A stretch of DNA of 64,000 bases from Minisyncoccota bacterium (GTDB taxonomy: Bacteria > Patescibacteriota > Minisyncoccia > UBA6257 > 2-01-FULL-56-20). This document shows, one piece after another, positions 26,548 to 64,000 of the stretch. A model generated the notes under the pieces. That model saw only the letters and a list, made by a program, of their open reading frames with translations. It ran no database searches and was not told the DNA's origin. Every line of letters begins with the position of its first letter. The first letter of the stretch is position 1. Where the stretch lies: assembly GCA_035541435.1 (NCBI GenBank), contig DATKNL010000010.1, positions 94,477-158,476 of the forward strand. Reading direction: 5' to 3'. A program made the translations under genes and the position numbers.

Positions 26548-26610
26548 AAAAGGGAATGATGTGCTACACTGACTAAGTACCCAGGAAAGGTCGAATATTC
26601 CTCAAATTCC

Positions 26611-27998: not shown

Positions 27999-28122
27999 AT
28001 GTTCTTCTCCGATCTCTGTAGAGAGCTGGTAACATATTACCATATAAATAGATAATTGTCAATTGTATTAAAAAAGGCCTTCGGTGGTTGCCGTCGGCCT
28101 TTGTTTTTGCGCATGCCTGAAG

Positions 28123-29076
28123 CTAGCGCTCTGCTTTTGTGGTGGTGGGAGCAAGAATCATGTAGCCGCCCTGCTTGCCTTGGACGAGGAACGCGTCCGG
28201 GCAATGGCCGATGTCCTCGGCGACCTTCGCGTTGCCGTCATCCGCCGTTCGGATCGGTCCGATAAAGCTTTTGTCCGGGCAGGCGATGCTCACCCAGCCG
28301 TCGCTCCTATCGATGACCGCGAATTCGCCTTCCCAGGAAGCATGGTATTCGTTTCTGAATCCATCCTCTTGATAAGCGACCTTCTCTTTCGGTTCCGTAA
28401 GATCATACTGGTTGCGCCCGTCTGCGATCTTCGGGCTGAAGCCGCGAGGAGCGGCGTCGCCGATGAACGTCCAGACGAAGAGAGCGGCAGTTGCGGCAAC
28501 AAGCGGGCCGCTGATCCAGATGTTCCTCATCGTCTTTGTCCACACGATCATCAGGATGACGAAGCCGAGGACGATCGTGTGGAATATCATGGTTGTCCAA
28601 GAGGCGTCTTTCGTCGCATTGAACCCGAAGCCTAGCCAAAGAGCCAGACAGAAGATGATTTCCCCGAGAAGGATGAATCCCCATATGCCGAAAATCCTGC
28701 GAGCCAAGGCCTGAGTCACCAGTGCCGCGGTGCGCAATTTTTTCGGCAGTTCCGCCAGGATTCGGGAATCATCCGAAAACCGCAGGATTGCGATGATTCC
28801 GATGAGGCCGAGGGGTCTGACCTTCAGCCAGATGACCCAGGCGATTACGGCGAATACCGTGATCGTCAACACCGGAACCAGCTTGAAAGCCGCGTCTCGA
28901 TCCAAGCAACGCTCGATCCAGAGGACGGCCACGGGAAGGAAGAAGATGGCGGCGAAGAGGCGTTCCAACCACAGGTTGACCTCTTCGTACCCTTCGTCCC
29001 TCAGGATGTAGTAATGCTCTCGGACGCTCCGTTTGCCCTCCTGAAGAAATGCCATTGGGTCGAAATCTTCGTCCAT
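28123..29076 (-). CDS. Hypothetical polytopic membrane protein (about 6 TM) with a C-terminal soluble Cys-containing domain.
   Basis: Several hydrophobic helices are present. No family was recognised. Confidence 0.45.
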   Translation of the reverse strand: MDEDFDPMAFLQEGKRSVREHYYILRDEGYEEVNLWLERLFAAIFFLPVAVLWIERCLDRDAAFKLVPVLTITVFAVIAWVIWLKVRPLGLIGIIAILRFSDDSRILAELPKKLRTAALVTQALARRIFGIWGFILLGEIIFCLALWLGFGFNATKDASWTTMIFHTIVLGFVILMIVWTKTMRNIWISGPLVAATAALFVWTFIGDAAPRGFSPKIADGRNQYDLTEPKEKVAYQEDGFRNEYHASWEGEFAVIDRSDGWVSIACPDKSFIGPIRTADDGNAKVAEDIGHCPDAFLVQGKQGGYMILAPTTTKAER

Positions 29077-29085
29077 AATCCCTCC

Positions 29086-29760
29086 TTACCTGCTGCGGCT
29101 AAGGCGCCGCGTTTCGAGCATGTCGTTGTGGTTCCGCATCCTGACCGTGAGTCGCGCGAGCGACCTTTTCATTCCTTCGAATTCGCTTTGGGCGCTTTTT
29201 TTCGCCTTTTCGAAATCGATGTGAACCAGGCTCGGATTTGTCGTGCCGTTCTGCGGATGATCGGGTATCTTGCACGCTGCGTGTTCCGCTTCGAGCTGGG
29301 CCTTGATGAACTTGAGCAGCTCGATTCTGACGCAGAACTCCTTTTTGATCTTATCGAGTTCCGCAGCAGGATCGCTTGCTTTCGTGATCCGTACCGCGGC
29401 GGCCGCATAGAAGTCCTTGATCCAGTCGCCATCGGAGGATTCAAGATGCTTCATGACCTCGGTCGTCTGCACGGCCGGTTTGTGTCCCAGTGCCAGCGCG
29501 ACAGCTTTGAGGAAGTCCGTAAAGATTTCCAGGCCGCCAGACAGGATGGGGTTACTTATGTCGTCTGCGGTGCCCTCGATCCTTCCCGAAAGAAGCCCTA
29601 TCGCACGACCGAATAGTCTCGATCGGGTCCAGTGCCCTTCGGGAATGAAGTTGCTGATATATTCAGCAAGCCTGTCGATCTCGGGATCCGCCAAGCCGAG
29701 CAACTCCAACGTCATCGTTCTCCGTCGGGAAAACTTCGGATCGATTTCCGGATTTGCCAT
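29086..29760 (-). CDS. Hypothetical cytoplasmic protein.
   Basis: It is a 224-aa ORF co-directional and tightly spaced with the two downstream membrane genes. No family was recognised. Confidence 0.4.
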   Translation of the reverse strand: MANPEIDPKFSRRRTMTLELLGLADPEIDRLAEYISNFIPEGHWTRSRLFGRAIGLLSGRIEGTADDISNPILSGGLEIFTDFLKAVALALGHKPAVQTTEVMKHLESSDGDWIKDFYAAAAVRITKASDPAAELDKIKKEFCVRIELLKFIKAQLEAEHAACKIPDHPQNGTTNPSLVHIDFEKAKKSAQSEFEGMKRSLARLTVRMRNHNDMLETRRLSRSR

Positions 29761-29855
29761 GATTTATCCCTCCACCATTATCAATGGTCTGGCAATATAA
29801 TATCATTAATTTTTATATTTGTCAAAATCACCGAAACCACTTAGAATGAAGGCGC

Positions 29856-29939
29856 GCTGGGGTGGTGAAATGGCAGACACGCAAGGTTTAGGACCTTGTG
29901 CCGCAAGGCGTGTGGGTTCAAGTCCCACCCCCAGCACCA
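29856..29939 (+). tRNA. tRNA-Leu (UAG), type II, with encoded CCA.
   Basis: It has acceptor GCTGGGG/CCCCAGC, anticodon loop TTTAGGA, a long variable arm TGCCGCAAGGCGT, T-arm GTGGG-TTCAAGT-CCCAC and ACCA. Confidence 0.85.
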
Positions 29940-29943
29940 GAGA

Positions 29944-30044
29944 TTTATTTTCCCCAAGAAAGGGTCGGCTCGTTTTCTGCTGAAAACGGCCTACGCCTCC
30001 GCGCCTTCGCGCGTCCGGCATACCCTTTCTTGGGGAAAATAAAT
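29944..30044 (+). repeat. Structured repeat element, copy A. It has a 23-bp perfect outer stem enclosing the conserved inner hairpin.
   Basis: The outer stem ATTTATTTTCCCCAAGAAAGGGT ... ACCCTTTCTTGGGGAAAATAAAT encloses TCGTTTTCTGCTGAAAAC ... CGCCTTCGCG. It starts 5 nt after the tRNA-Leu CCA. Confidence 0.7.
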
Positions 30045-30139
30045 ACTCTTCTGTTTTGGGTGGGGCTTGTACGAGTGGAGGGGGGTCGGGGAACTCGGCA
30101 CCGCTTTAAATGCCTGCAAAGAAGCGCTAAACTGAATGC

Positions 30140-31231
30140 ATGTCCATCATCGAGGACCGGCAGAAGATCAGACAGGAAGCTGAACGCGCGAAGCGGCAGA
30201 CGGAACAGCGCGGCGAGACGGTCGAGCAGGCGCCTGTTTTCGACCCGACCCTTCAGGAAATCCTGAGCAACCCGGAAGAGAGCCAGCTCTTCGGCTCCTA
30301 TCTTGAGCACGAAAAGAAGGGCGATCTCGGCGCGCGTCTTGCGAAGAACGAGCTTAAGCCCGAGGATCTCGAGGCGCTGGAATCGGACCGGGTGCAGTTC
30401 GTAAAGAGACTCGAGGCCGCAAAACGGATGGAGGGGCATTTTGCCGAAAGCGCGATCCAGAAGCTTGTCGATGCGTCGCCGCGCTTCAGGAAGATCGCAA
30501 ACGTTGTCGGCGTGAAGAACGTCAGCGAGGCATTCACCAAGCACCTCGTGGAGCTGTCGGTCGCGGAACCTCACGAATTCATGCAGATCGAGCGTGCCAT
30601 AACCCGGCTCATCGAGCGTCAGAAACGCGAAGAGCGGCTGCAGAAGGAGATCGTGGAGATCTGCCGAAAATATAAAATACCCAGCGTGCGCGAATATCTC
30701 AAGGCCGTCGACTCCGACGATCCCGAGGCGCTCAAGAAGCTGGTTGCGAAATCGATGGGTCGGCTTGAGCGATTCGTCAAAGGAAGGTCCGGAGAGCTTG
30801 AGGAAGAAGTGAAGGCGGCGAACAAGCGCGCGAAACTCGACAGCCTCGAAGCCTGGGCGAAGGACGATCTTGAGGAGGTGGGACGGCTGCTCAGCATCTC
30901 CCTCACGAACAACGACAGACTTCGGTCGACGTTGGTGTCGTTCTCAAAAAAAGAAGACGTTCTCGCGAAATCTCCCGTAGCGACCTTCAGGGATGTGCGA
31001 ATCGCCGAAGAGGCGTGGGAATCGCTTTCAGAAGAAGAGGTCGGCGAAGCGTGGGAAACCTATAAGAAAGAGCGTCCTGCGATGACCGACGTGAAAAAGG
31101 AAAAGGAAGGGTTCTGGAAGGTGTTTGCGCGAAGGAGCGGCTTCGGTGCAAAGAGCGGATTCTGGAGCGATGTCGCGACCATGACCGGCGCCGCGTCGCT
31201 TGCAGGTCGGTTCGAATCAAAACTTAACTGA
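30140..31231 (+). CDS. Hypothetical highly charged (E/K/R-rich) protein.
   Basis: It is a 363-aa ORF predicted to be helical with no recognisable family. Confidence 0.45.
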   Translation: MSIIEDRQKIRQEAERAKRQTEQRGETVEQAPVFDPTLQEILSNPEESQLFGSYLEHEKKGDLGARLAKNELKPEDLEALESDRVQFVKRLEAAKRMEGHFAESAIQKLVDASPRFRKIANVVGVKNVSEAFTKHLVELSVAEPHEFMQIERAITRLIERQKREERLQKEIVEICRKYKIPSVREYLKAVDSDDPEALKKLVAKSMGRLERFVKGRSGELEEEVKAANKRAKLDSLEAWAKDDLEEVGRLLSISLTNNDRLRSTLVSFSKKEDVLAKSPVATFRDVRIAEEAWESLSEEEVGEAWETYKKERPAMTDVKKEKEGFWKVFARRSGFGAKSGFWSDVATMTGAASLAGRFESKLN

Positions 31232-31239
31232 ACGCATCC

Positions 31240-31521
31240 ATGACGAACGACATCGTTGAAAGACTGCAGGAGGTCGTCGCGGCCGGCGACGAAGCCGCCG
31301 CGCGGGAGTTCGTGATGCAGCACCTTCACGAGTTTTCCGATGAGGACCGCCGCGCGATCATCGTGAGCCTGGCGACCGAAGCGCTATCCCGCGACGCTGA
31401 GGAGATCGACGGCCTGCTTTCGCTGCAGGAAAACGGCGTGAAGACGGTCCATGCGCTCGAGAAGATCCAGGAGAAGATCGACGACAAGCGCCGGCTGCTC
31501 GATATCAAGGAATCGATTTAG
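31240..31521 (+). CDS. Hypothetical small acidic protein.
   Basis: It is a 93-aa ORF lying 9 nt after the previous gene, and is likely co-transcribed with it. Confidence 0.4.
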   Translation: MTNDIVERLQEVVAAGDEAAAREFVMQHLHEFSDEDRRAIIVSLATEALSRDAEEIDGLLSLQENGVKTVHALEKIQEKIDDKRRLLDIKESI

Positions 31522-31540
31522 GATTTGCTGCCGCACCGCG

Positions 31541-32464
31541 TCAGTCCTCCTTGCGCCGCGTGCCGTGGAACGACTTGTGCACGTCCCGCAGCTGCTTGTT
31601 CGTGAGGTGCGTATAGATCTGCGTGGTCGATATGTTCGAGTGGCCGAGCAGCTCCTGCACGGCGCGGATGTCGGCGCCGTTGATCAGGAGGTCGGTCGCG
31701 AAGCTGTGCCGCAGCTGGTGCGCATGGATGCGTTTCGGAATGCCCGCTTCGCGCGCGCGCCGCTCGACGACGCGTTCGACGGCCCGCGTCGTGATCGGGC
31801 CGATGACGTTGCCCATCCGGTCGAGGCTGACGAACAGCTTCTCTTCGGCGTCGGCGCGCCTCGCGAGATATCTCTGCAGCGCATCGCGCGCGGAATCCGA
31901 GATGAAGACGACGCGGAGCTTGTCGCCCTTCCCGCGCACGGTCGCCTCGCCGCGACGGATGTCGATGTAGCGCGAGAGCGAGCAGAGCTCGGCCAGGCGC
32001 AGTCCCGTCGAGAAGAAGAGCTCGAGGATCGCCTTGTCGCGCAGCGACCGCAGGTCGTTGCCCTTCGGGGCCGCAAGCAGCCGCTCGAGGTCGGCATATT
32101 CCAGAACGTCGATCTGCCGGGCCGGCGCCTTGGGCAGCTCGATCTTCTCGGCGGCGAGCGCCTTCACGTTGCGCTTCGCGAGATATTTGAGGAAGTTCCG
32201 AAGCGCGATGACGTAATAGCCCTGCGTCACCTTCTTGAGCTCGCGGCGCGCAAGGGCCTTGCGGAATTCGGTGACGAGCGACTCGGTGATGTCCTTGGCG
32301 GAGCGGATATCGGCGAACGTCAGGAACTCCTTGAGGTAGTGGCGATAGTTCTCGCTCGTCTTCGGCGAGCGATTCTTCTCGACTTCAAGGTAGTTGAGGT
32401 AGTCCTGAAAGAGCTGTTCGATTTCGCTTGATGCCATTCCCTTATTATACGCCATCTGTCGCAC
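31541..32464 (-). CDS. xerD: Tyrosine site-specific recombinase, XerC/XerD-like.
   Basis: It has an N-terminal SAM-like domain (LSENYRHYLKEFL-type) and a C-terminal catalytic domain with R...HQLRHSFATDLLINGADIRAVQELLGHSNISTTQIYTHL (R-H-R-Y). Confidence 0.8.
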   Translation of the reverse strand: MRQMAYNKGMASSEIEQLFQDYLNYLEVEKNRSPKTSENYRHYLKEFLTFADIRSAKDITESLVTEFRKALARRELKKVTQGYYVIALRNFLKYLAKRNVKALAAEKIELPKAPARQIDVLEYADLERLLAAPKGNDLRSLRDKAILELFFSTGLRLAELCSLSRYIDIRRGEATVRGKGDKLRVVFISDSARDALQRYLARRADAEEKLFVSLDRMGNVIGPITTRAVERVVERRAREAGIPKRIHAHQLRHSFATDLLINGADIRAVQELLGHSNISTTQIYTHLTNKQLRDVHKSFHGTRRKED

Positions 32465-32578
32465 AATATTTGAGCGATTTTATGACGTTTTCATGATCGG
32501 CGGGGAATGAAGCGAAATCGCGGGTCGGAGGGCACGGGGACTTGCATTTTTCTGAATCACGGGATATAATAGCTTGTA

Positions 32579-45007: not shown

Positions 45008-47695
<2,688 letters not shown>

Positions 47696-48439
47696 GGCCG
47701 CGATTTTCGCCGCCGCGTGGCTCGTCCTTCCGTTCTGGCTGTTCGCGATCGTCGCGCTCTATCTCTGTTTCGTTCCGGTCCCGCAATCAGCCACGGTTGC
47801 GGGGCCTTTTTTCGCGCTGCTCCTCGTCGCATTCCTCAATCCGCCGGGATGGACGTTCGCCGTCATCCTCGGATGCATCTTCTTCGCGCTGCTCCTCATC
47901 AAAGGGTTCATCCTGATCGACCGCGAGTCGGCCTATGAGGCCGTGATCCTGTCGATCACGTTCCTGCTCTTCCTGGCGTTCTATGAGAAAGCGGGATCGG
48001 CGATCGGCTGGGAGTCGCTCGGCTATTCGTTCGGCGTCGCGCTCGTCGCGGGATTCCTGGTTTCCAACTTCGTGCGGTTCGCCGCACCCAGTCATGTTCC
48101 GCCGGATGAGGGCGCTCTTGCGGGCGACGCCGGTGCAGAGGCGCGGGAGCCGGACGACGACGAAGCCATGGCGTCCGAAAGCCGCATCAGCCGTTTCGGC
48201 CGCCCGGCCGTCTGGCTTGCGACGCTGCTCGTTTGGGAATTCCTGCTCGCCGCGCTCTTCCTGCCGCTCGATTTCGTCTATCAGACGATCGCGGCGTTCC
48301 TCGGCGCGATCGTCGTGATCGATCTCGTACCGCAGCATCTCTTCGGGACGCTTTCGCGCGCCAAGGTGCTCGTGACGGCGAGCATCGTCTTCGTGCTCTT
48401 CGTGTTCATTCTCGGATCGGCGCGCTGGGGGCTCTAGGC

Positions 48440-49633
48440 CTAGGGGAAGACGAGGTCCCACACCATCCCGGCAACGTTGCGTGCCGGTCCCTTGAGCGGG
48501 AAGTGGTGGAGGTCGATGAAGGGCAGGCTGTTGCATTCGATCACGCCGCAGCGCGATGAGCGCCAGGACCGGGCCATGTCCTCGATCATGAAGTCGATGC
48601 CGATCAGGGGATCGTCCACGATGCGTCCGATCGCGAGAAAGAGTTCCCGGTTGTCCGGATGGACGTCCTCGACCTCGGTCGTCGATGCGCCGAACGAACG
48701 GCTTACTTTGGGATGCAGCATGACCATGGCGTTCGCCGCGGGGACGGTGTCGAGCGAATGGCCCTGCGCGGCGACGAAGGCGAGATCGACTTCGATCGCG
48801 TGGAAGACCGGCCCCTTGCGCAGGGGATTTTCGTTTTCTGCGGCGATGAGCTCGCGCAGCGAGCGCCTGCCGTCCCCGATCACGTGCGGCGGCTCGCGGC
48901 GCATGATGCCGCCGATCCGCCCGCCGATCAGCGTGATGCGAAAGACGAATCCCGGCAGCTCCTCTTCGACGACGACGCGGCGCGAGATCTCGCGCGCCTT
49001 CTTGAACGCGTGGCGGAGCGCATCAAGGGTCGTGATATGCATATAGGTGTGGCGGCTGCGCGAACCGATCGCGGGCTTCACGATCACGGGGCCGCCGATG
49101 GACGCGAAGATCGCCTCGGCCTGACGGATGGTCCGCGCGTCCCCGCCGCGGGGGACGGGGATGCCGGCCCGCCCGAACGTCCTGATGATCGCGCCCTTGT
49201 CGTCCATCCAGTCGAGGCCCGCCTCGTGGGCGAGGCGCGGGCGGGGGAGTCCGTCGAAGACGCGCGTGTCGCCGTTCTTGGTCGCGAAGAAGATGTTGCG
49301 CGGAAGGCCGAACGGCCGGAATTCGCGCATGGCGATGCCGCGGCGTTCGGCTTCCTCCCAGAGCACGCGCGAGCGGTCGGTCGTCGTGCGGTCGGGGCGG
49401 TCCGCGATGGTGCCGAAGCCGAGCGCGGCGAGGGCGCCGAACACCGGTGGTGCCAGGCGTCCGGGTTTGAGCCACGCGACGGCGGGGCGGATGAGGTTCC
49501 ATATGGCCTCAAGCGGCGCGAAGATCGTCGCGGACCAGTCGTCGACGGTCGCGTTCCACCGCTCGACGGCGTGCGAGACCGGCATCGGTCCGCAGTCGGG
49601 GCAATAGGCGTGCATGGTGCGGTCGGCCATCAT
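48440..49633 (-). CDS. ATP-grasp domain protein (RimK/cyanophycin-synthetase-like ligase), tentative.
   Basis: It has an N-terminal CPDCG motif. The layout GGPVIVKPAIGSRSRHTY...EEELPGFVFRI...IEVN-type resembles the ATP-grasp fold. Confidence 0.45.
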   Translation of the reverse strand: MMADRTMHAYCPDCGPMPVSHAVERWNATVDDWSATIFAPLEAIWNLIRPAVAWLKPGRLAPPVFGALAALGFGTIADRPDRTTTDRSRVLWEEAERRGIAMREFRPFGLPRNIFFATKNGDTRVFDGLPRPRLAHEAGLDWMDDKGAIIRTFGRAGIPVPRGGDARTIRQAEAIFASIGGPVIVKPAIGSRSRHTYMHITTLDALRHAFKKAREISRRVVVEEELPGFVFRITLIGGRIGGIMRREPPHVIGDGRRSLRELIAAENENPLRKGPVFHAIEVDLAFVAAQGHSLDTVPAANAMVMLHPKVSRSFGASTTEVEDVHPDNRELFLAIGRIVDDPLIGIDFMIEDMARSWRSSRCGVIECNSLPFIDLHHFPLKGPARNVAGMVWDLVFP

Positions 49634-49649
49634 GCACCATCATACGCCA

Positions 49650-51173
49650 TCAGAGGAACCCAGGGAAGAAGTCGGTTTCGATCTGCGCGAGCGGGATGCC
49701 GAGCTCCCGGAGTGTCTTCTTGAATCCCGAGACCATCGCTTCGGTTCCTGAAATGTAAAAGATGCGCTCGCGGTAGTCGGGGACCGTGCGGCGGATGAGG
49801 TCGGCGTCGATGCGCCCCTTCACGCCGTTGTGCGCGGGCGCCGGCTCTCCCTCACCCGTGACGACATAGACCGTGCGCAGGCCCCAGCCCGTTTCGGCCT
49901 CGTCGAAGATCTCTTTATAGGAGATGTCGGCGTTCGTGCGGTTCGAATAGAGGAGGACGGCGTCGCGCCGGCCCCCGGAATCGGAGATATGCTTCACCAT
50001 GCTTCGGAACGGGGTGATGCCGATGCCTCCGGCGACGAAGACGAGTTTTTTCGACAGGTCGTCCGGCAGGGTGAAGTCCCCGGCGAGCTGTCCCGCAAAG
50101 ATCGGGTCGCCGGGCTTCATGGCGAGCATGCGTTTCTTGAAACTGCTCGAATTGTCATAGAACCGGACACCGAGGCGCACGTTCGGTTCGGTGGGCGACG
50201 ACGCGATGGTGAAATAGCGGCGGTTGCCGCGCGAATCGATGAGCTCGTGCGCGAGCGTCCATTCGAGATATTGTCCCGGGCGGAACGAAAGCCCCTTGAC
50301 CGGCTCGAACGAGAAATCATAGATGTCGGCGCTTACGGCCTTCTTTTCGCGTAGCACGAAGCGATATTTTCGCTTGGGGCTCACGAGATAGGCGAAGACG
50401 TTGCCGACGAGGAGCGCAAGTTCGGGAATCGAATAGACCGGGCCGATGTGGATATAGGGAGAATAGAGCGCGCCCACGAGCACGGCATAGGCGATGCGGA
50501 GGGAGCGCGTTGGCGGCGTTGTGAGCGGCTCGGTGAGCATGATGAACGCGAAGAAGAAGAGGGGCGTGTGAAGGGCGAGGCGTTCAAGCGTGCCTGCGGG
50601 ATCGAAGAGGGGGCTGAGCGCGATGCAGCTTATGGCCGCCGCGCCCAGGAACGGCAGGACGAGGTCGAACCGCTGGATCTTGCGGACGACGAGGAGCCCG
50701 CCCACGAGGACGAACGGGAGCATGGGCAGGTTGCCGCCGACCCACCAGCTCGCATAGTCACCGAGCGCGAATGCCGTGACGACGACCGCGAGCGCCGCCG
50801 GATTGAAGACGTGCTTCTTCCCGATGGCGAGGAGGTATTTCGAAGCCATCCCGACGACGGCTGCGGCGGCGAGGAACGTGACGCCCGCCAGGCTGTTGGG
50901 CGATGCCGGCGGAACGATGAGGGCGAGGATGAGCGCCGTGATATAGGTCGATTCGTGGTTCGGATGCGCGTCGAAGATCTTTGCGAAAAGCGCGTTCGCA
51001 AGCCATGAAAGCACGATGAGGAAGAGCGTCGAGAAGACGAGCGCCGTCGGATCCACCGGGACCCAATGGACGGCCCCGAAGATGGCGCCCAGCGCGACGA
51101 AGGCAATGAGGACATACAGCACGAGGCGGTACATCGTGATCCTGTTGAGCAGCCGGTCTATGAAGTCAATCAT
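49650..51173 (-). CDS. Membrane oxidoreductase with an N-terminal RnfD/NqrB-like polytopic domain fused to an FNR-type FAD/NAD(P)-binding reductase domain.
   Basis: The N-terminal helices carry VFNPAALAV (the RnfD/NqrB FNPA motif). The C-terminus has RYFTIASSP (RxYS FAD-binding) and GGIGITPF (NAD-binding). Confidence 0.65.
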   Translation of the reverse strand: MIDFIDRLLNRITMYRLVLYVLIAFVALGAIFGAVHWVPVDPTALVFSTLFLIVLSWLANALFAKIFDAHPNHESTYITALILALIVPPASPNSLAGVTFLAAAAVVGMASKYLLAIGKKHVFNPAALAVVVTAFALGDYASWWVGGNLPMLPFVLVGGLLVVRKIQRFDLVLPFLGAAAISCIALSPLFDPAGTLERLALHTPLFFFAFIMLTEPLTTPPTRSLRIAYAVLVGALYSPYIHIGPVYSIPELALLVGNVFAYLVSPKRKYRFVLREKKAVSADIYDFSFEPVKGLSFRPGQYLEWTLAHELIDSRGNRRYFTIASSPTEPNVRLGVRFYDNSSSFKKRMLAMKPGDPIFAGQLAGDFTLPDDLSKKLVFVAGGIGITPFRSMVKHISDSGGRRDAVLLYSNRTNADISYKEIFDEAETGWGLRTVYVVTGEGEPAPAHNGVKGRIDADLIRRTVPDYRERIFYISGTEAMVSGFKKTLRELGIPLAQIETDFFPGFL

Positions 51174-51197
51174 CGTTTAAGGAATTTTTAATGAATG

Positions 51198-51941
51198 CTA
51201 CGCGGCCGCGAACCGTTCGAACCCGCTCGTCATGACGGCCTGCCGGTCGTTCCGGATCATGTAGGTTTCGAATCCGGGCAGCGATTCGACGAACGCTGCG
51301 GCATCGGTGCCCATGGCAAACGCCGCCGTCGCGATCCGGTCGGCCTCATAGACGTTCGGGCCGATGACTGTGAGGCTTGCGATGTCCTCGGCGGGTTTTC
51401 GCGTCAGGGGATTATAGATGTGCGGGCCCCTGACATAGGTACCCGAGGTCGCGACGCCTTCGCCGGTCACCTTCACTATTTTGACATGTTCATCCTGGTT
51501 CCAGGGATTCTTGATGCCGACGCTCCACGATTCGCCTTCGGCATTCCGGCCGTGGGGCTGGATGTCGCCCCCGGCGTCGACATAGAAATCTGCAAATCCG
51601 GCCTTGAGGATGAGCTGGGCCGCGTTCCATATGGACCAGCCTTTCACGAGTCCCGAGGGATCGAGCCTGCCTTCGGGCGTGCGGATGTCGAAGAATCCCC
51701 GTGTGAGCTGCTTCGTCTCTTCGGAAAGCATGAGCACGAGCCGCATCTCGGGGCTCGCATCTTCGGGCGCGAGGCGTCCGCTGTTGATCGCGCTGATCTC
51801 GCTCGTCTCTTTATAGGTGCTGAATGTCTCGTCGATATGCGTGAAATAATCGAACACGCGGTCGAAGATTTTTTCGCCCGCGCGGGGATCGGCGATTTCG
51901 AGTGAGATGGGCATGCCCATGAGGAATCGTGTCTGTTTCAT
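51198..51941 (-). CDS. apbE: FAD:protein FMN transferase (ApbE family).
   Basis: The sequence reads FLMGMPISLEIAD...YVDAGGDI...VATSGTY, the ApbE signature. Confidence 0.8.
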   Translation of the reverse strand: MKQTRFLMGMPISLEIADPRAGEKIFDRVFDYFTHIDETFSTYKETSEISAINSGRLAPEDASPEMRLVLMLSEETKQLTRGFFDIRTPEGRLDPSGLVKGWSIWNAAQLILKAGFADFYVDAGGDIQPHGRNAEGESWSVGIKNPWNQDEHVKIVKVTGEGVATSGTYVRGPHIYNPLTRKPAEDIASLTVIGPNVYEADRIATAAFAMGTDAAAFVESLPGFETYMIRNDRQAVMTSGFERFAAA

Positions 51942-51983
51942 GGGTGGGATCGCTCACGGCTCGCGCCGGCCGGCGCCGATAGG

Positions 51984-52529
51984 TCAGACTTTCGCCTGGG
52001 CGAGCGCCGAAGCGAGCGACTGCTGGAACGCCTGACTGTCCTGGGTTGCGCCCGAGACGATGTCGACCGTCGCGCTCTGGGCGGTGATGGCTTCCTGCTT
52101 GAGCTGCGGCAGCGCTTCGCGTGAAACTTCGGCCGTATGCCCGGGGTCGTTCGGATATTGCAGGAACTTCACGTCGGTCAGCTTGCCGCCGCTTATGACG
52201 GCCGAGACCTGGATGGTTCCATAGAACGCGTCGGCAGCCGTTCCGGTGTATGTTCCATTCTTATAGAGGCTGGTCGTTCCGGAGCCTGAGCCCGATCCAG
52301 ACCCGGTGCCGCCGGTGCCGGTGCCAGTGCCGCTTCCGCTACCGGTCCCCGTTGTTCCGGTTCCCGATGACGTTGCACCGCTGCCGCTGCCGGAAGGCGT
52401 CGGCGTGCTTGAGGGCTGACCGCCGCCGGTTGTCGCGACGTTGCTATTCCGTTGCGATGAGAAGATGGCATATCCCGCAATGACGACGACGGCGATGATG
52501 GCCAGAACGTATTTCCAGGCGTTTTTCAT
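51984..52529 (-). CDS. Membrane-anchored FMN-binding domain protein with a flavinylation motif.
   Basis: It has an N-terminal TM, a Gly/Ser/Thr-rich linker and an FMN_bind-like domain ending in DIVSGATQDSQAF. This is the D-x-x-[ST]-G-A-T motif recognised by ApbE. Confidence 0.7.
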   Translation of the reverse strand: MKNAWKYVLAIIAVVVIAGYAIFSSQRNSNVATTGGGQPSSTPTPSGSGSGATSSGTGTTGTGSGSGTGTGTGGTGSGSGSGSGTTSLYKNGTYTGTAADAFYGTIQVSAVISGGKLTDVKFLQYPNDPGHTAEVSREALPQLKQEAITAQSATVDIVSGATQDSQAFQQSLASALAQAKV

Positions 52530-52634
52530 GGGGTTTGATCGTGATGCGACGTTTCGACGTCCTTATAATACGGCGGACGGACGAGTTTTGGTTCTCGTAA
52601 GGGATTATAGCAGATCGATGCGGAGTTCTCTATA

Positions 52635-54617
52635 ATGAGAGCCATGCAGCAGCAACCGGGTCCCGCCATCGACCCCGCCGCGCTCGACCATTCCGTCAAG
52701 CCGTCGGACGACTTCTTTCATTATGTGAACAGTTCCTGGATCGCCTCGCATCCCATTCCGCCGACCGAGGCGCGATGGGGGTCGTTCTATGTGCTTCGCG
52801 TCGAAGTCGAAGAGCAGTTGAAGAAGATCTTCGAGGAGCTCGCGTCGATGCCCGCCGACAAGCTTGGCGAGGAAGGGCGCAAGGTGAGGGATTTCTATGC
52901 GAGCGGCATGGATGTCGAAAAGCTGAATGCGGTAAAGGACGGGGCCCTGGGGACCGTCATGCAGGAAGTGAACGGCATCGCGAACCTGAGCGATCTCGTG
53001 AGGGTCGTCGCGTTCCTGCATCACCGCGGCATTCGCGCGTGGTGGAACTGGAGCGCCGAACCCGACGCCAAGGCGAGCGACGTCATGGCGCTCTATCTTT
53101 CCCAGAGCGGGCTCAGCCTTCCCGACAGGGATTACTATCTGAAGGACGACGAGAAGAGCGCCGAGATCCGGAAAAAATATGCCGACTATGCGGCGGGTCT
53201 TGCCGGGATGTCGGAATGGATGGCCGCGGACGGTCCGTTCCTCAAGCCGATCCGCGACATCGAGACGGAACTCGCCAAGGCGTCGATGACGCGGGTCGAA
53301 TTGCGCGACATCGAGAAGCAGTACAACAAGATGTCGCCCGCCGAGCTCGCGGCCATCACCCCGCACGTGGACTGGGGGACGTATTGGGCCGAGATCGGCA
53401 TTGCGCCGCCGCCCTATGTCATTGTGTGCCAGCCGGAGTTCATGAAGGCGACCGACCGCATCCTTGCCGAAACGCCCATCGAGACCCTGAAGGCCTATCT
53501 GCGTTGGCATGTGCTCAACAATCTCGCCGGTTTTCTCGGTGAGGAATTCGAGAAGCGCCCGTTCGATTTCTATGCGCGCACGTTCGGGGGCGCGACCGAA
53601 ATGAAGCCGCGGTGGCGGCGCGTGTCGGGCATGGTGAACTCCCTGCTTGATCATGCCGTCGGCCGGCTGTACGTCGAGCGGTATTTCAGCCCCGAAGCCA
53701 AGGCGCGCATCGGCGCCCTCGTCGACCACCTCACCGAAGCCTATCGCACCCGCATCAGGAATCTCGACTGGATGAGCGACGAGACCAAGAAGAAGGCTTT
53801 GGGGAAGCTCGACATGGTTGCGCGCAAACTCGGCTTCCCTGAGCCGTGGAAGGACATCGCCGCGATGACGATCGGGCCGGATTCATATGTCGAAAATTAC
53901 ATGCGCGCCAACATGTTCGAAAGCGACCGCATGTCGCAGAAGGTGGGCAAGCCCGTCGATCGAACCGAGTGGTATATGTCGCCCCAGACCGTGAACGCCT
54001 ATTATTCGCAGCTCATGAACGACATCGTGTTCCCCGCCGCCATCCTGCAGCCGCCCTTCTTCTATCCCGAAGGCGACGACGGCGTGAATTTCGGAGGGAT
54101 CGGCAGCGTGATCGGCCACGAGCTCACGCATGGGTTTGACGACAAAGGATCGCTCTTCGACGGCAAGGGCAACCTGCTTCATTGGTGGACGCCGCAAGAC
54201 CGCGAGCGGTTCGAGAAGAAGGCCGCGATGCTTGCCGAGCAGTTCGACCGTTATGAGCCCCTGCCGGGACTTCATGTAAACGGCAAGCTGACCCTCGGCG
54301 AGAACATCGCCGACCTCGGAGGGCTGCTCATCGCCTATGACGGGCTCATGCTTGCGCTTCGGGACAATCCCGCCGCCAACGTCGCGATCGACGGCCTCAC
54401 GCCCGTACAGCGGTTTTTCATCAACTATGCGATCACCGAGCGCTCAAGCGTCCGCGAGGAAAGCCTGCGTTCGCAGATCCAGACCGATCCGCATTCGCCC
54501 TCGGAATACCGGGTGAACGGACCGCTTTCGAACATGACGGCCTTTTATGAATCATTCGACTGCAAAAAGGGCGACGCCCTGTGGCGCGATCCCGAAGACA
54601 GGGTCAATATCTGGTAG
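52635..54617 (+). CDS. pepO: M13 family zinc metallopeptidase (PepO/neprilysin-like).
   Basis: It has HExxH (VIGHELTHGFDDKG) and a downstream ENIADLGG (E-x-x-x-D) motif. Confidence 0.8.
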   Translation: MRAMQQQPGPAIDPAALDHSVKPSDDFFHYVNSSWIASHPIPPTEARWGSFYVLRVEVEEQLKKIFEELASMPADKLGEEGRKVRDFYASGMDVEKLNAVKDGALGTVMQEVNGIANLSDLVRVVAFLHHRGIRAWWNWSAEPDAKASDVMALYLSQSGLSLPDRDYYLKDDEKSAEIRKKYADYAAGLAGMSEWMAADGPFLKPIRDIETELAKASMTRVELRDIEKQYNKMSPAELAAITPHVDWGTYWAEIGIAPPPYVIVCQPEFMKATDRILAETPIETLKAYLRWHVLNNLAGFLGEEFEKRPFDFYARTFGGATEMKPRWRRVSGMVNSLLDHAVGRLYVERYFSPEAKARIGALVDHLTEAYRTRIRNLDWMSDETKKKALGKLDMVARKLGFPEPWKDIAAMTIGPDSYVENYMRANMFESDRMSQKVGKPVDRTEWYMSPQTVNAYYSQLMNDIVFPAAILQPPFFYPEGDDGVNFGGIGSVIGHELTHGFDDKGSLFDGKGNLLHWWTPQDRERFEKKAAMLAEQFDRYEPLPGLHVNGKLTLGENIADLGGLLIAYDGLMLALRDNPAANVAIDGLTPVQRFFINYAITERSSVREESLRSQIQTDPHSPSEYRVNGPLSNMTAFYESFDCKKGDALWRDPEDRVNIW

Positions 54618-54716
54618 CGTTGAACGGACGGACGGCCGACCGCGGATTTCTTTAAGGGAAATTTAATGAGGGATATGGACAATGGTTAGGGTCGACCATT
54701 AACCAATCCTTTTCAT

Positions 54717-55829
54717 ATGAAACGGTTCTTCGCCGCCCTGGCGGCACTCGTGGTTTTCGCTGCCGCAACGCCGTTCGCAAAGGCCGATTATCATTTCGCC
54801 GACTTCATGGGATCGCCGCCGATCCACGTGTTCAGGTCGGCGCAGAAGACGCCCGTGGGGCTCACTCCGCTCGAGGTGAAGCATATCTATCATCTGCCAC
54901 TTGCGGGCGGGGCGAGCAGCACGATCGTCCTCATCGAGGCCTACGACGATCCGACCGTTGAGGCGGACCTCGCTTCGTTCGACGATGCCTTCGGATTGCC
55001 CGCATGCACGTCCAAGAACGGATGTTTCGAGAAGCACGTCATGGCCGCCGGTTTGAAAACCGATGCCGGATGGGCGCTCGAGACCGCCCTCGATGTCGAA
55101 TGGGCCCATGCGATCGCGCCGCAGGCGAAGATCCTCGTGATCGAAGCCAAGACCCAGAGCGGCGCAAACCTATTGAGGGCGGTTGACTATGCAGCGGCGC
55201 GGAGCGACGTGACCGCGGTATCGATGAGCTGGGGTGGCCGTGAGTTCCGCGAAGAGACGTCCCTCGACAATCATTTCGTCGGCAGCCATCCCGAGGCGTT
55301 TTTCGCTGCCGCCGGGGATCGGGGAGCGGGGGCGAGCTGGCCCGCCGCATCGCCGAACGTGATCGGGGTCGGCGGCACATCGCTCGAGATCCTGAAGGAC
55401 GGCACGCTGGTTTCGGAATCGGCGTGGGAAGGGAGCGGAGGCGGCGTGAGCGCCTATGAGCCCGAAACGGGCTTCGAGCGCGCGTACGACATTCCGAAAG
55501 CCGGCGGCCACCGGGCGATTCCCGACGTCGCCTACGACGCCGATCCGAAGTCGGGATTCGCCGTCTATAGGTCGAGCGGCGCGTCGAAGAACGGTTGGTA
55601 TGTGGTCGGCGGCACCTCGGCCGGTGCGCCGCAATGGGCCGCGATCTTCGCCATCGGCCGTTCAGCGACGCTGAAGAATCTTTATACCGACAAAGCTTCC
55701 GCGAATCCGCTGAGTTACTTCAGGGATATCACGAGCGGCTCGAACGGGACGTGCCAATATTATTGCGATGCGCGCAAGCGATATGACTATGTGACCGGCC
55801 TCGGCGTACCGATCACGACGAAATTCTAA
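54717..55829 (+). CDS. Secreted S8/S53 (subtilisin/sedolisin-like) serine peptidase.
   Basis: It has a signal peptide and the catalytic Ser context GGTSAGAPQWAAI. Confidence 0.65.
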   Translation: MKRFFAALAALVVFAAATPFAKADYHFADFMGSPPIHVFRSAQKTPVGLTPLEVKHIYHLPLAGGASSTIVLIEAYDDPTVEADLASFDDAFGLPACTSKNGCFEKHVMAAGLKTDAGWALETALDVEWAHAIAPQAKILVIEAKTQSGANLLRAVDYAAARSDVTAVSMSWGGREFREETSLDNHFVGSHPEAFFAAAGDRGAGASWPAASPNVIGVGGTSLEILKDGTLVSESAWEGSGGGVSAYEPETGFERAYDIPKAGGHRAIPDVAYDADPKSGFAVYRSSGASKNGWYVVGGTSAGAPQWAAIFAIGRSATLKNLYTDKASANPLSYFRDITSGSNGTCQYYCDARKRYDYVTGLGVPITTKF

Positions 55830-60736: not shown

Positions 60737-61699
60737 TCAGAAGGGCAGGCCGAAGTGCGCCCGCAGGAAGTCCAGGATGGCCGCGAAGGGCGATGTCGGC
60801 ACGACGGCGACGGTCGGCGCGTTGCCGCCGAAGGCGGAACGCCACCCGCCGGTCCGCGGGATGCGGCTCACGAAGGACGGCGTGTCGCGGCCGGCCGAGA
60901 CGACGTTTGACCGCAGGACGGTGAAACTCGCGCCGTCCGCGCCGAGCGGCGAAGGCGAAGCGAGTGCCGCGCCGTCAGGGGTCATCATCGCGACGCCGCC
61001 GGCGCGGGTCTCGGCGATCGTGAGGGCCGTGCCGTCGGCTGTCGCGGAGCCGTTCGTAAACGAGACGCTGCCGAACCGGTCGAGCGGGAGCGCGCCGATG
61101 TTCGCGGTCGGCATCTCCTCGATCCATTCCGCCGAAGATCCGTCGTCGCGATAGGTGACGGTCGTGCGGTAGTTCTCGCCCGTCGTCGCGTCGGCGAAGG
61201 ATACCGACCACACGTTCGTATCGGACTCGGTGATCGAAACGTTCACGGCGTCGTGCGCGTGGACGTCGAGCGGGATTGTCTTCATGTCCTGCGGCAGGGT
61301 TTCGAACCAAGCCTGATAGTCCACGGCGCCCGAAGGGTCGGTGAGGGCCTGCGTCCCGGCCTGGATGAGTGCGTCGCTCGAGACGCCGCCGATGCCGACC
61401 CAGGTCGCGTCAGCGGTCGTCGACGATGCGGGTGCGACCTGCGGGACGACCCACGATCCGGCGACTGCGGTGAAAGGGCCCTGATCCGTCATATAGCCGG
61501 ACCAGTTGAGCGAGGTGTTGAGGCCTGTCGCGACGAGCGGGGCCTGGGGTGCGGCGACCGGCGTCGCGCCGTCGGGAACGGCGGCCGCGCGACCGTGCCG
61601 CCATCCGTTGGATGCGGCGAAAACCGGCGCCCAGGCCAGCGCCTGCGCGATGAAGGATGCGGCAACCACGACGGCGGTGAGCGTCACGGCGGATTTCAT
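60737..61699 (-). CDS. Secreted peptidase of the G1 (eqolisin/scytalidoglutamic, Pfam Peptidase_A4) family.
   Basis: It has a signal peptide (MKSAVTLTAVVVAASFIAQALA) and the family hallmarks NWSGY, TAVAGSWVVP, WVGIGG, LIQAGTQ, YQAWFE and SAEWIEE. Confidence 0.7.
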   Translation of the reverse strand: MKSAVTLTAVVVAASFIAQALAWAPVFAASNGWRHGRAAAVPDGATPVAAPQAPLVATGLNTSLNWSGYMTDQGPFTAVAGSWVVPQVAPASSTTADATWVGIGGVSSDALIQAGTQALTDPSGAVDYQAWFETLPQDMKTIPLDVHAHDAVNVSITESDTNVWSVSFADATTGENYRTTVTYRDDGSSAEWIEEMPTANIGALPLDRFGSVSFTNGSATADGTALTIAETRAGGVAMMTPDGAALASPSPLGADGASFTVLRSNVVSAGRDTPSFVSRIPRTGGWRSAFGGNAPTVAVVPTSPFAAILDFLRAHFGLPF

Positions 61700-61765
61700 A
61701 CCCTCCCTTATACGCCCCGCGCTCCGCAGTGTTTCATTCCGAGCTGTCATCCGTAGTATCAGGAT

Positions 61766-62008
61766 ATGGCCCGACGCTATGGCAGAAAATCGCAGCAGAA
61801 GGTGAAGCGCGCGATGCACGAAATGAAGCGCGGCAAGCTTAAAAGCGGCCGCAGCGGCAAGACGGTCCGCAGCCGAAAACAGGCCATCGCCATCGGTCTT
61901 TCCGAGGCGCGCCGATCGGGCGCAAAGGTTCCGCCGGCGCCGAAGCGAGGAAGGGGACGAGGGCGGTCCTCTACCCGCACCCGCAAACGCTCAAGGAAAA
62001 GCAGATAA
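61766..62008 (+). CDS. Hypothetical small highly basic protein.
   Basis: It is an 80-aa Lys/Arg-rich ORF overlapping the 5' end of the peptidase ORF on the opposite strand. No family was recognised. Confidence 0.35.
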   Translation: MARRYGRKSQQKVKRAMHEMKRGKLKSGRSGKTVRSRKQAIAIGLSEARRSGAKVPPAPKRGRGRGRSSTRTRKRSRKSR

Positions 62009-62070
62009 TTTTTCGTCGCGCCTCTCACTTGAACCGCCGGACGGAGTGCGGTACCCTTAGGTGTCATTTT

Positions 62071-62157
62071 GGAGGCGTGGCCGAGTGGCTTAAGGCAGCA
62101 TCCTGCTAAGATGTTAGGGGAGAAATCCCCTCGAAGGTTCGAATCCTTCCGCCTCCG
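62071..62157 (+). tRNA. tRNA-Ser (GCU), type II.
   Basis: It has acceptor GGAGGCG/CGCCTCC, anticodon loop CTGCTAA, a long variable arm, T-arm GAAGG-TTCGAAT-CCTTC and discriminator G. Confidence 0.85.
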
Positions 62158-62287
62158 CAGACAAGGTAAAAGTATCGTAGCAACCGTCTTATATAGCTTC
62201 TTAGTGCGACCGCCCTACCCGAGGACAGGAGGACGGCCGAACTTTTTGATTTTTAATTTGTCTAATTCTGGGCTTTGATCCTTCGGG

Positions 62288-62920
62288 TTAAAATACCATC
62301 TTCGTATCTCCCCATCCTCCTTTCGGAGAGAACTCTCCGGCGATGGCACGCTCGTGTATTTCCCACGGCGTAGCGCCCGCTTCGCGTGCTTCCACTAATT
62401 TGTCGGGATCGACGGGTGTTATTTTCGGTTCCATCGTTTTAATATGCTCCGTCGCGGTCTCCCACGAGCTGTAATTGTTGACGAAGATCTCTACGTTGTT
62501 TCCGTCGGGATCCATCCAATAGAACGACGTGCCCACGCCGTGGTCGGCCGCCCAGACCGGCTTGATGCCTTCGTCCTTCAGGCGCACGTAGGTGCCCAAG
62601 AGGTCATCCAAGGTAGGAATTTCAAATGCCACGTGTTGCAGCCTGAGATGTTTTTGCTTGTCGGGGTCAGTTTTGACGCCCTTAACTTCGAAGAGGACGA
62701 TGCGGTGATCCACCTCGTCATTGCCCATAAACGTTGCGGCCGAAAAGGGTGAAAATTGACGCGCAACAAGCCCCACTTCCGAACGATGATTTACGTTCAT
62801 CCCTAATACCCTACGGTACCACTTTGCCATAGCATCCATGTTGGCGGTGACGAGCCCGTAATGCATCAGTTTGGGATGAGCGATGACTTCTGCGTTAAAT
62901 TTATTATTTTTTGTACTCAT
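62288..62920 (-). CDS. VOC family protein (glyoxalase/bleomycin-resistance/extradiol dioxygenase fold).
   Basis: It has two betaabetabetabeta modules (HYGLVTANMDAMAKWYRRVLG and HVAFEIPTLDDL). Confidence 0.65.
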   Translation of the reverse strand: MSTKNNKFNAEVIAHPKLMHYGLVTANMDAMAKWYRRVLGMNVNHRSEVGLVARQFSPFSAATFMGNDEVDHRIVLFEVKGVKTDPDKQKHLRLQHVAFEIPTLDDLLGTYVRLKDEGIKPVWAADHGVGTSFYWMDPDGNNVEIFVNNYSSWETATEHIKTMEPKITPVDPDKLVEAREAGATPWEIHERAIAGEFSPKGGWGDTKMVF

Positions 62921-62950
62921 TGGTTTATTTATATTTAATTAGTTTATATT

Positions 62951-62967
62951 ATCTTAGTTGCTAAGAT
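62951..62967. promoter_or_regulatory. Palindromic operator (7-3-7) in the divergent VOC/MarR intergenic region.
   Basis: ATCTTAG-TTG-CTAAGAT is a perfect inverted repeat in an AT-rich spacer. It matches the typical pseudo-palindromic architecture of a MarR binding site. Confidence 0.55.
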
Positions 62968-63005
62968 ATTTACATGGTAAGCGATGTCTGCTATCCTTGT
63001 CAAAT

Positions 63006-63470
63006 ATGGAAAAAGGCCGACTTTTACAGAATTTAGGACAGGCCATGATGGGCCTCAGCAACGAGCAGATCCTACTCCATCAGGCCGTTGCCGACGCGCT
63101 TGGCCTTAATATCACGGATCACAAATGTGTGAACCTTATTGCGCGGTTCAATCCCATGACCGCAGGTAAGCTTGCAGAACTCACCGGCCTCACCACGGGA
63201 GCAATCACAGGCGTCATCGACCGGCTCGAGAAAGGCGGCTATGCAAAGAGAATCCTCGACCCCAACGACAGGCGCGTGACCGTCGTCGAACTGACCAAGA
63301 AAGGAGAATCGATCAGCAAGATATTCTTGCCGCTGGTTAAGAAAATGGGAAAAGCGTTTGAAGCATTTAGCGACAAAGAACTGGCTGTTATTCTCAAGTT
63401 TGTAACTCTCGCCGCGGAAACTTCTCATGATGCGGCGAAGGAACTCAGGAAGAAAAGCGGAAAGAAATAA
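63006..63470 (+). CDS. MarR family transcriptional regulator.
   Basis: It has a winged-helix region (MTAGKLAELTGLTTGAITGVIDRLEKGGYAKRILDPNDRRVTVVELT). Confidence 0.8.
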   Translation: MEKGRLLQNLGQAMMGLSNEQILLHQAVADALGLNITDHKCVNLIARFNPMTAGKLAELTGLTTGAITGVIDRLEKGGYAKRILDPNDRRVTVVELTKKGESISKIFLPLVKKMGKAFEAFSDKELAVILKFVTLAAETSHDAAKELRKKSGKK

Positions 63471-63603
63471 GGAGAACTCTCCATGGGAGAATAAATCGGT
63501 AAGTTCGAATCCTCCCGCCGATATGGATAAATTAAAAAACTCAATAAAATCAATGGGATGGCACCAGGGCGACCGAGACGGTTCGAATACTGCCGCCCCC
63601 GCC

Positions 63604-63643
63604 ATGCTAAAAAAGACACTCATATGAGTGTCTGTTTTAGCAT
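63604..63643. terminator. Long perfect hairpin flanked by A-tracts and T-tracts (bidirectional terminator-like).
   Basis: The sequence atgctaaaa-aagacactca-ta-tgagtgtct-gttttagcat is a nested perfect inverted repeat. Confidence 0.6.
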
Positions 63644-64000
63644 TTGTTGAGATGAAGGATTCGAACAGCGGAGGGGGTCGGGGAACCGCGATCGGTTCCC
63701 CGTGTCGGAGAGCCGCTGAGAACCGAGGGTTCTGAGGGTGCGAGCATAGCGAACGATGTTCGATTCCCTTCCGCCTTCGCCAGCGGCGGATTTGGAAAAA
63801 CCAGGGCTTCGTCAATTAAAAAAATAGCTTCTACTTTTTTGTAGAAGCTATCCGTTCTTGCGACGGTTAACCCGTCAGAACAAAGTCAATCCGTACCATA
63901 CCCTGCCATCGCAGCAAGTTGATGGGGATCGCTGATGCGCGATCCAGCATCGAACCGGTCACGATATCGGTAGTCGAAATCGAACGATGTGCGGAGCACT

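Follow-up and report, generated by a model that had tools for sequence, protein, structure and literature searches.

The DNA analyzed here is a stretch of 64,000 nucleotides, referred to below as the window, from contig DATKNL010000010.1 of a Minisyncoccota bacterium (assembly GCA_035541435.1). Our subject is a group of three consecutive minus-strand genes within it, which code for an FMN_bind protein of 181 aa, a predicted ApbE flavin transferase of 247 aa, and a 507-aa fusion of an RnfD/NqrB-like membrane domain with an FNR-type reductase module (Table 1). An initial annotation of the window had proposed that these genes form a flavinylation and electron-transfer module; the open reading frames (ORFs) are exactly those it had listed, and all motifs quoted there are present in the translations. 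The ATP-grasp gene that it had placed directly downstream on the same strand is likewise there, and the gaps between the four minus-strand ORFs, in the order FMN_bind, ApbE, fusion, and ATP-grasp, measure 42, 24, and 16 nt. Upstream of the FMN_bind ORF, an M13 peptidase gene (52635-54617) runs in the opposite orientation.

Table 1. Features of the flavinylation locus (positions refer to the window)
Feature	Position	Strand	Remark
FMN_bind protein ORF	51984-52529	-	181 aa
Export signal or signal anchor of the FMN_bind protein (predicted)	52458..52529	-	residues 1-24; MKNAWKY followed by 17 hydrophobic residues
Linker from anchor to flavin domain	52239..52457	-	residues ~25-97; low complexity, rich in Gly/Ser/Thr/Pro; read from the sequence
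FMN_bind domain	51987..52238	-	residues ~98-181; PF04205
ApbE ORF	51198-51941	-	247 aa
RnfD/NqrB-FNR fusion ORF	49650-51173	-	507 aa
RnfD/NqrB-fold membrane domain	50370..51173	-	residues 1-268; 10 helices, flavinylation loop deleted
FNR-type FAD/NAD(P)H module	49653..50369	-	residues 269-507; predicted to be cytoplasmic
ATP-grasp ORF	48440-49633	-	397 aa
Promoter-like site	52604..52632	-	TAGAGA-17 nt-TATAAT with extended -10 TG; consensus match only

The fusion protein is identical to a protein annotated in a metagenome-assembled genome of Candidatus Paceibacterota, a member of the candidate phyla radiation (CPR), which is the lineage that had been guessed from the sequence. The window is an ordinary CPR chromosome with genes for NusA, ClpP, FtsH, SHMT, both gyrase subunits A and B, RecA, PNPase, FtsK, and ClpB as well as nine tRNAs, and no respiratory components were found among the 37 window ORFs that were scanned against Pfam. 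CPR bacteria, or Patescibacteria, are generally described as fermenters without an electron-transport chain.

In a scan that comprised one genome per species, relatives of the fusion were found in at least 595 genomes, and the best 80 of these, together with two further loci, gave a set of 82 non-redundant loci of about 13 kb each, in which all neighboring ORFs were clustered. The same-strand order FMN_bind-ApbE-fusion occurs in 56 of the 82 loci, and an FMN_bind gene lies directly upstream in 73 of them, in agreement with the expectation that the three genes are kept together in relatives. According to the record labels, the relatives span the Patescibacteria (Paceibacteria, Minisyncoccia, Kaiser-, Adler-, Uhr-, Azam-, Lipton-, Yanofsky-, Nomura-, Davies-, Ames-, and Wirthbacteria, and Microgenomates), and they include Chloroflexota of the Anaerolineales, Aggregatilineales, and Chloroflexia.

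The 181-aa protein contains one FMN_bind domain (PF04205, E = 7.3e-9, 36.6 bits versus a Pfam cut-off of 22) and no lipobox cysteine. When a profile of its C-terminal 95 residues was compared with the Protein Data Bank (PDB), it matched domain 2 of SaFMN3 end to end (8P2A, E = 2.9e-21), and the FMN_bind fold that had been assigned to this protein is thus borne out. Armadillo-repeat matches of the same profile were rejected as repeat artifacts; no single stretch of them passes on its own. The string DIVSGATQDS corresponds to residues 156-165 and contains the flavinylation motif D156-I-V-S-G-A-T162, in which Thr162 (codon 52044-52046) is the predicted FMN-carrying residue. This motif, [D/N/x]xx[S/T]GA[T/S], was present in 80 of 80 FMN_bind homologues, with a variable first position that is tolerated according to published mutagenesis data.

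The N-termini of the FMN_bind partners show the n-h-c pattern of export signals, with MKK followed by about 17 hydrophobic residues and then a polar stretch. Among 57 homologues, the hydrophobic segment was preceded on average by 2.0 lysine and arginine residues, and the 15 residues that follow it contained 0.7; the count was higher on the N-terminal side in 47 cases and lower in only 1. This bias indicates an orientation in which the N-terminus would remain inside and the C-terminal flavin domain would be located outside the cell. A second FMN_bind gene with a flavinylation motif was seen near the module in loci L040 (3921-4733, minus strand) and L069 (3263-3664, minus strand), and some lineages may thus have two flavin carriers.

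The second gene had been named as the ApbE flavin transferase, and Pfam agreed with this (PF02424, E = 3.5e-39). In alignments to the S. enterica and E. coli structures (3pnd, 4xgw), the motifs of the catalytic half were found to be kept, namely TSGxY, the histidine of H-x-x-x-P, and EADxxxT, which read TSGtY, pH-iynP, and EADriaT in the window protein. In ApbE enzymes, these motifs stand for the general-base histidine and the Mg2+-binding D...T next to TSGxY. There is an internal deletion of about 50 aa relative to the S. enterica and E. coli proteins, and the 247-aa protein is predicted to be a compact and leaderless ApbE-type FAD:protein FMN transferase. Its N-terminus, MKQTRFLMGMP, starts five residues ahead of the β-strand with which the mature ApbE fold begins, and a start of the form MK(E/Q)TR(I/L)LMGMP is common to the window and about 70 related loci, those of Chloroflexota included, with neither a signal peptide nor a lipobox on the cluster ApbE in any of these. 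The 120 best public homologues, which derive from independent gene calls, are all 238-263 aa long. A mis-called start that hides a signal peptide was considered and rejected, as the longest possible ORF has 247 aa and the upstream gap only 42 nt; some loci have longer ApbE ORFs, but these only run into the upstream gene and have the same MK(E/Q)TR start in their interior. A typical ApbE is a periplasmic lipoprotein, an N-terminal lipoprotein or Sec signal being typical of the family though not universal.

For the N-terminal half of the fusion, the sequence evidence for an RnfD/NqrB assignment was thin. NQR2_RnfD_RnfE (PF03116) matched above its Pfam cut-off (E = 1.3e-8, 35.0 versus 27.7 bits), with the best stretch confined to profile positions 178-286, the C-terminal third of the profile, and the family profile of residues 1-268 found, among PDB sequences, only RnfD of A. 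vinelandii with a marginal E value of 0.041. We therefore turned to fold modeling. As Foldseek searches with the full-length model returned FNR-family matches only and nothing on the membrane domain, residues 1-268 were modeled alone with AlphaFold2 (pLDDT 81.5, pTM 0.81). With this model, the best 15 matches in the PDB were all RnfD or NqrB (E = 3e-6 to 5e-5, TM-score 0.56-0.73, about 280-300 aligned columns), as had been proposed for the N-terminal domain. The next matches were urea and ammonium transporters with E values above 0.1, an order that fits the published kinship of these transporters with RnfD/NqrB (PMC12174285). In 31 fusion homologues, the average number of lysine and arginine residues per loop was 0.5-3.6 in alternate loops, which we assign to the inside, and 0.03-0.10 in the others, assigned to the outside. 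This alternation gives a predicted topology of ten helices with both termini inside, which would place the FNR module in the cytoplasm.

The C-terminal half had been described as an FNR-type module with a FAD and an NAD(P) domain. This description holds for NAD_binding_1 (PF00175, E = 9.9e-15, 55.6 versus 22 bits) and for the FNR fold, whereas FAD_binding_6 (PF00970) stayed below its cut-off with 17.1 versus 21.1 bits. The best Foldseek matches of the module were flavohemoglobin, the FAD domain of NqrF, and bacterial NOX, NCBIfam recognized the reductase modules of flavohemoprotein, NqrF, PaaE, and others, and the profile of the module matched NqrF chains with E values of about 1e-12. RYFTIASSP (residues 319-327) and GGIGITPF (residues 382-389) contain the family motifs RxYT and GGIGxTP, with R319-Y-F-T322 for FAD and G382-G-I-G-I-T-P388 for NAD(P)H being invariant in the homologues, and the module has a C-terminal aromatic motif, DFFPGF.

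When the membrane domain was aligned with RsxD, the FNPA motif (FNPAAL, residues 123-128) and the TEPxTTP motif coincided, but residues 143-228 of E. coli RsxD, which include the flavinylated T187, corresponded to only about 14 residues in the fusion. The fusion has therefore lost the loop to which FMN is covalently bound in RnfD/NqrB, a segment of about 87 residues, and a motif of the S(G/Q)AT type ([ST][GQ][AS][ST]) was found in the membrane domain of none of 84 homologues. What is left is a shortened L5-6 loop, GDYASWWVGGNLPM, which contains the invariant residues W143, W144, G146, G147, and N148 and faces outward according to the topology analysis.

These observations also bear on the question of whether the genes could be part of a canonical RNF/NQR complex, the other subunits of which are encoded elsewhere in the genome. 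Many homologues are publicly annotated as 'RnfABCDGE type electron transport complex subunit D', as would be expected in that case, but we regard it as extremely improbable, because the covalent-FMN loop that defines RnfD/NqrB is deleted and the FNR module is fused in place of the RnfC/NqrF contacts. Moreover, no RnfA/E (NqrD/E), RnfC/NqrA, or RnfB/NqrF was present among the scanned window ORFs or the recurrent neighbors of the 82 loci, and the analysis of Méheust et al. (2021; eLife 10:e66878) treats clusters of this kind as partial systems with one path.

In our view, the module is likely to be an NQR/RNF-like flavinylation-associated transmembrane electron-transfer system of CPR bacteria, with a function that we infer. 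According to Méheust et al. (2021), the 'NQR/RNF-like system' is defined by a protein with an N-terminal PF03116 and a C-terminal PF00175 domain in a flavinylation-associated gene cluster, in which the NAD-binding domain is NqrF-like and an ApbE or FMN_bind gene lies at a distance of at most five genes from that of the fusion. The window fusion fits this definition, as PF03116 is followed by PF00175, the ApbE gene is located 24 nt upstream, and the FMN_bind gene comes next. A pair from Ktedonobacter racemifer was modeled with AlphaFold-Multimer by Huang et al. (2024; bioRxiv 2024.03.13.584918), who state that the fusion does not conserve the Thr that is flavinylated in NqrB/RnfD, and who propose that the covalent flavin of the partner visits the flavin site of the membrane subunit, which is now a non-covalent one. 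With its lost flavinylated-Thr loop, the window module also fits this description.

In such a system, the FNR module of the fusion would oxidize NAD(P)H in the cytoplasm and reduce its own FAD, as suggested by the conserved motifs and the fold. Electrons would then cross the membrane through the ten-helix domain, probably by way of a non-covalent flavin at the position of the RnfD/NqrB riboflavin, which in these proteins is located at the cytoplasmic side, with FMN at the periplasmic side (PMC12174285). In the exported FMN_bind protein, ApbE would link FMN to Thr162 through a phosphoester bond. As the fusion has lost its own flavinylation loop, the Thr162-bound FMN of the partner could dock at the outward pocket that was emptied by this loss, as in the model of Huang et al. 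(2024), and the outward L5-6 loop with its invariant WW-GGN would be found at the place that corresponds to the vacated pocket. On a flexible linker of about 70 residues, the flavin domain would finally hand the electrons to an external acceptor, for example Fe(III), O2, or an oxidant that is soluble or derived from a host. Transfer from NAD(P)H to FMN would be downhill, since the closest solved FMN_bind relative, SaFMN3, has a published midpoint potential (Em) of -184 mV, and no quinone step is implied, since the donor is a membrane protein that binds NAD(P)H and is complete in itself. Overall, this would amount to a one-way oxidation of NAD(P)H that needs neither quinones nor cytochromes. 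If this mechanism is true, a fermentative CPR cell could in this way recover NAD(P)+, carry out reductions outside the cell, or do both. There are few candidates for membrane redox devices in CPR bacteria, and a widely conserved, self-contained path that leads from NAD(P)H to an extracellular flavin is among them; it could explain their NAD(P)H re-oxidation, iron acquisition, coping with oxygen, or electron exchange with a host.

As the whole ten-helix fold is retained, the module could in principle also act as a minimal ion pump driven by redox chemistry, descended from RNF/NQR by loss of parts and still moving Na+ or H+ through the RnfD/NqrB-fold domain. This fold is related to cation/solute channels. 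In NQR and in the RNF of C. tetanomorphum, RnfD/NqrB is a leading candidate for the path of the ions (PMC12174285), and E215, an invariant acidic residue of TEP(L)TTP, falls on the TDP motif in the alignment with RsxD. Nevertheless, we consider a pump improbable, as coupling in NQR/RNF is thought to need the 2Fe-2S switch of RnfA/E (NqrD/E) and large movements of NqrC between two sites (PMC12174285), and the RnfA/E (NqrD/E) subunits are absent from the scanned locus. The driving force would also depend on the acceptor. A pump would mean that 'non-respiring' CPR bacteria gain a respiratory-like energization of their membrane from NAD(P)H.

Several points weigh against the one-way electron-transfer system that we prefer. 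The non-covalent flavin of the membrane domain is postulated from homology only. No gene for a terminal acceptor is conserved near the module in the 82 loci. The FMN_bind domain appears to be closer to the small domains of multi-flavinylated proteins, as exemplified by 8P2A, than to NqrC/RnfG, which were not among the PDB matches of its profile at E <= 1. A literature search for NQR/RNF-like members yielded only the two in-silico papers and no experimental study. Finally, a leaderless ApbE does not match a substrate with an export signal, and the maturation step is thus not self-consistent as it stands, in that a cytoplasmic transferase appears to be paired with an exported substrate. We found no literature on ApbE in Patescibacteria, and no discussion of the leaderless cluster ApbE in the passages of Méheust et al. 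(2021) and Huang et al. (2024) that were searched.

This mismatch could be resolved in different ways. It is possible that the FMN_bind protein is flavinylated in the cytoplasm before its export by Sec. ApbE needs only a linear motif of seven residues and works best on terminal tags, as has been published, and the Thr162 site lies about 20 residues from the C-terminus. Flavinylation before export would remove the need for FAD export and, if true, would be a maturation route that has not been described for extracytoplasmic flavoproteins. It is also possible that ApbE is exported by a non-classical route, or that the FMN_bind domain stays in the cytoplasm even though its N-terminus resembles a signal. 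In the last case, the domain would be matured and active in the cytoplasm, where it would shuttle electrons from the FNR module to the cytoplasmic face of the RnfD/NqrB-like domain, which would then directly reduce a membrane or external acceptor. The uniform absence of a leader and the narrow length range of ApbE are in agreement with this, and known leaderless or cytosolic ApbEs serve cytoplasmic substrates, such as the fumarate reductase of K. pneumoniae (PMC12052999). We nonetheless judge a cytoplasmic FMN_bind domain to be unlikely, as the partner N-terminus has the architecture of an export signal with its predominantly N-terminal positive charges, long Gly/Ser/Thr linkers are typical of extracytoplasmic tethers, and the high-confidence multimer model of Huang et al. 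(2024) puts the domain on the outer face.

With respect to the surroundings of the module, the ATP-grasp gene is probably co-transcribed with it, given the short gap. The match of the 397-aa protein to TIGR02068 (E = 6e-53) is confined to positions 207-472 and falls far short of the equivalog cut-off, and the protein has an N-terminal CPDC motif and no Mur-ligase domain; it resembles, as judged by these matches, the G domain of cyanophycin synthetase in the form of a stand-alone ATP-grasp ligase. A role as the fourth core component was rejected, as the gene lies downstream of the fusion in only 11 of the 82 loci, all of them from the closest clade (at least 59% identity to the window protein), and we treat it as a case of clade-specific synteny outside the module. 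The promoter-like site of Table 1 is found about 75 nt 5' of the FMN_bind ATG and is the sole sigma-70-like match in 47400-53000 (5.6 kb), a count at about chance level (mean of 0.8 in shuffled sequence), so that its position alone speaks in favor of a candidate operon promoter, which we regard as suggestive.

Beyond the three core genes, no neighbor occurs in more than 18 of the 82 loci, the most common one (18/82) being an ABC ATPase. Other recurrent neighbors are an ECF sigma factor, an HlyD-like adaptor, and, in one sub-clade, a D-2-hydroxyacid dehydrogenase. The latter, an NAD-dependent type of enzyme that was recognized by eye, is encoded just upstream of FMN_bind in a sub-clade in which ApbE is not adjacent (L023, L025, L027, L036 with positions 3113-4117, L045, and others), and this hints at a link to NADH/lactate redox balance. 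In the window, likely secreted peptidases are encoded beside the module at 52635-55829 (plus strand) and 60737-61819 (minus strand); the group consists of the M13 metallopeptidase, a 370-aa protein whose homologue in L002 has a Peptidase_S8 domain, and a peptidase A4, and the M13 and S8-like genes adjoin the module only in the closest relatives.

Farther away, a tRNA-Ile with the anticodon TAT (UAU) is located at 9201-9273 on the plus strand. AUA is usually read in bacteria by a lysidine-modified CAU tRNA, and a UAU anticodon is uncommon. A flavin-monooxygenase-like ORF at 16046-17188 on the plus strand (FAD_binding_3, PF01494, E = 5.5e-30) represents an oxygen-dependent enzyme class that is unexpected in a presumed CPR fermenter. 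The region from about 24300 to 32500 may be an integrated element; it contains a pilin-like ORF of the type IV secretion system (T4SS) kind (24347-25222), several ORFs without a Pfam match, a dip of the GC content to 0.54-0.56 at 26-30 kb, a tRNA-Leu (29856-29939), and a tyrosine recombinase (31541-32464, minus strand). At the window ends (1-4000 and 62001-64000), the GC content is 0.47-0.51, as compared to about 0.60 elsewhere.

Among known systems, the initial annotation had likened the module to the extracellular electron transfer (EET) locus of Listeria monocytogenes (Ndh2, EetA/B, DmkA/B, FmnA/B, PplA). What is shared is an ApbE-family enzyme and a surface FMN_bind protein as the outermost carrier, and the flavinylation motif agrees between the two. 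No gene for Ndh2, EetA/EetB, or a DmkA/B-like protein was found in the flanks of about 10 kb, be it here or in the relatives, the ApbE is not a lipoprotein like FmnB, lipoprotein signals are altogether missing, and the FMN_bind domain is single instead of double, with the PplA model NF041941 scoring 16.3 bits versus a cut-off of 325. Electron flow of the Listeria type, from NADH over a quinone pool to a flavinylated surface protein, is thus very unlikely here, also because the donor module, which is joined to the membrane domain, binds NAD(P)H itself and because a quinone step is missing from the window module.

With RnfD and NqrB (8rbq_D, 7zc6_D, 9eri_D, 7xk6_B, 8a1x_B), the membrane domain shares the ten-helix fold, the FNPA and T(D/E)PxT(S/T)P motifs, and a consistent N-in/C-in topology, but the identity is only about 16-21%, the flavinylated segment has shrunk as described above, and the domain is fused to an FNR module with no RnfA/E/C/B or NqrA/D/E/F partners nearby. 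NqrF, flavohemoglobin, and bacterial NOX have in common with the fusion the two-domain FAD/NAD(P)H fold and its motifs, and the NOX of S. pneumoniae (8qta) also has a membrane domain followed by a C-terminal FNR module. NqrF, however, contains a 2Fe-2S ferredoxin domain that the fusion lacks, and NOX has a heme-binding ferric-reductase domain where the fusion has a flavin-type RnfD fold. SaFMN3 of Streptomyces azureus (8P2A), the closest solved relative of the flavin domain, has the same DxxSGAT site, is flavinylated by ApbE, and is reoxidized by O2 in its reduced form, as has been published. It consists of three tandem domains and has no known membrane donor, whereas in the window protein a single domain sits on a long linker and is paired with a dedicated donor.

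The fusion had initially been regarded as a novel twist on the Listeria locus, a view that does not hold, as this architecture has already been published as the 'NQR/RNF-like system'. In Méheust et al. (2021), such systems are reported mainly from Actinobacteria and CPR, 127 NQR/RNF-like clusters are counted, and CPR is called 'strikingly underrepresented'. The pipeline described there retained a cluster only if a signal peptide or lipobox was predicted in a target gene, and this filter may be the reason for both the under-representation of CPR and the count of 127. In a search of 1.84 billion representatives with the profile of the membrane domain, we obtained 558 clusters (50% identity) at E <= 1e-30 and 1286 at E <= 1e-10, and most of the matches listed are about 500 aa long, so that we take these to be fusions. 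Measured by species-level genomes (at least 595) or by clusters at 50% identity (558 to 1286), the family far exceeds the 127 clusters that have been published. This size, the uniformly leaderless ApbE of about 247 aa, and the kinship of the flavin domain were not found in the passages of the two papers that were searched.

The window module adds no new concept and is a member of a class already described in silico. Its remaining interest lies in the fact that this class, which has been studied in silico only, is very widespread in CPR, and in the leaderless-ApbE inconsistency, which is a concrete gap in the published model; the window locus is a clean, compact, and GC-rich example suited to heterologous expression. 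Between the NQR/RNF-like system and the window module, we see no difference in kind: the architecture is the same, the hosts are CPR and Chloroflexota, and the path proposed for both leads one way from NAD(P)H to an extracytosolic flavin.

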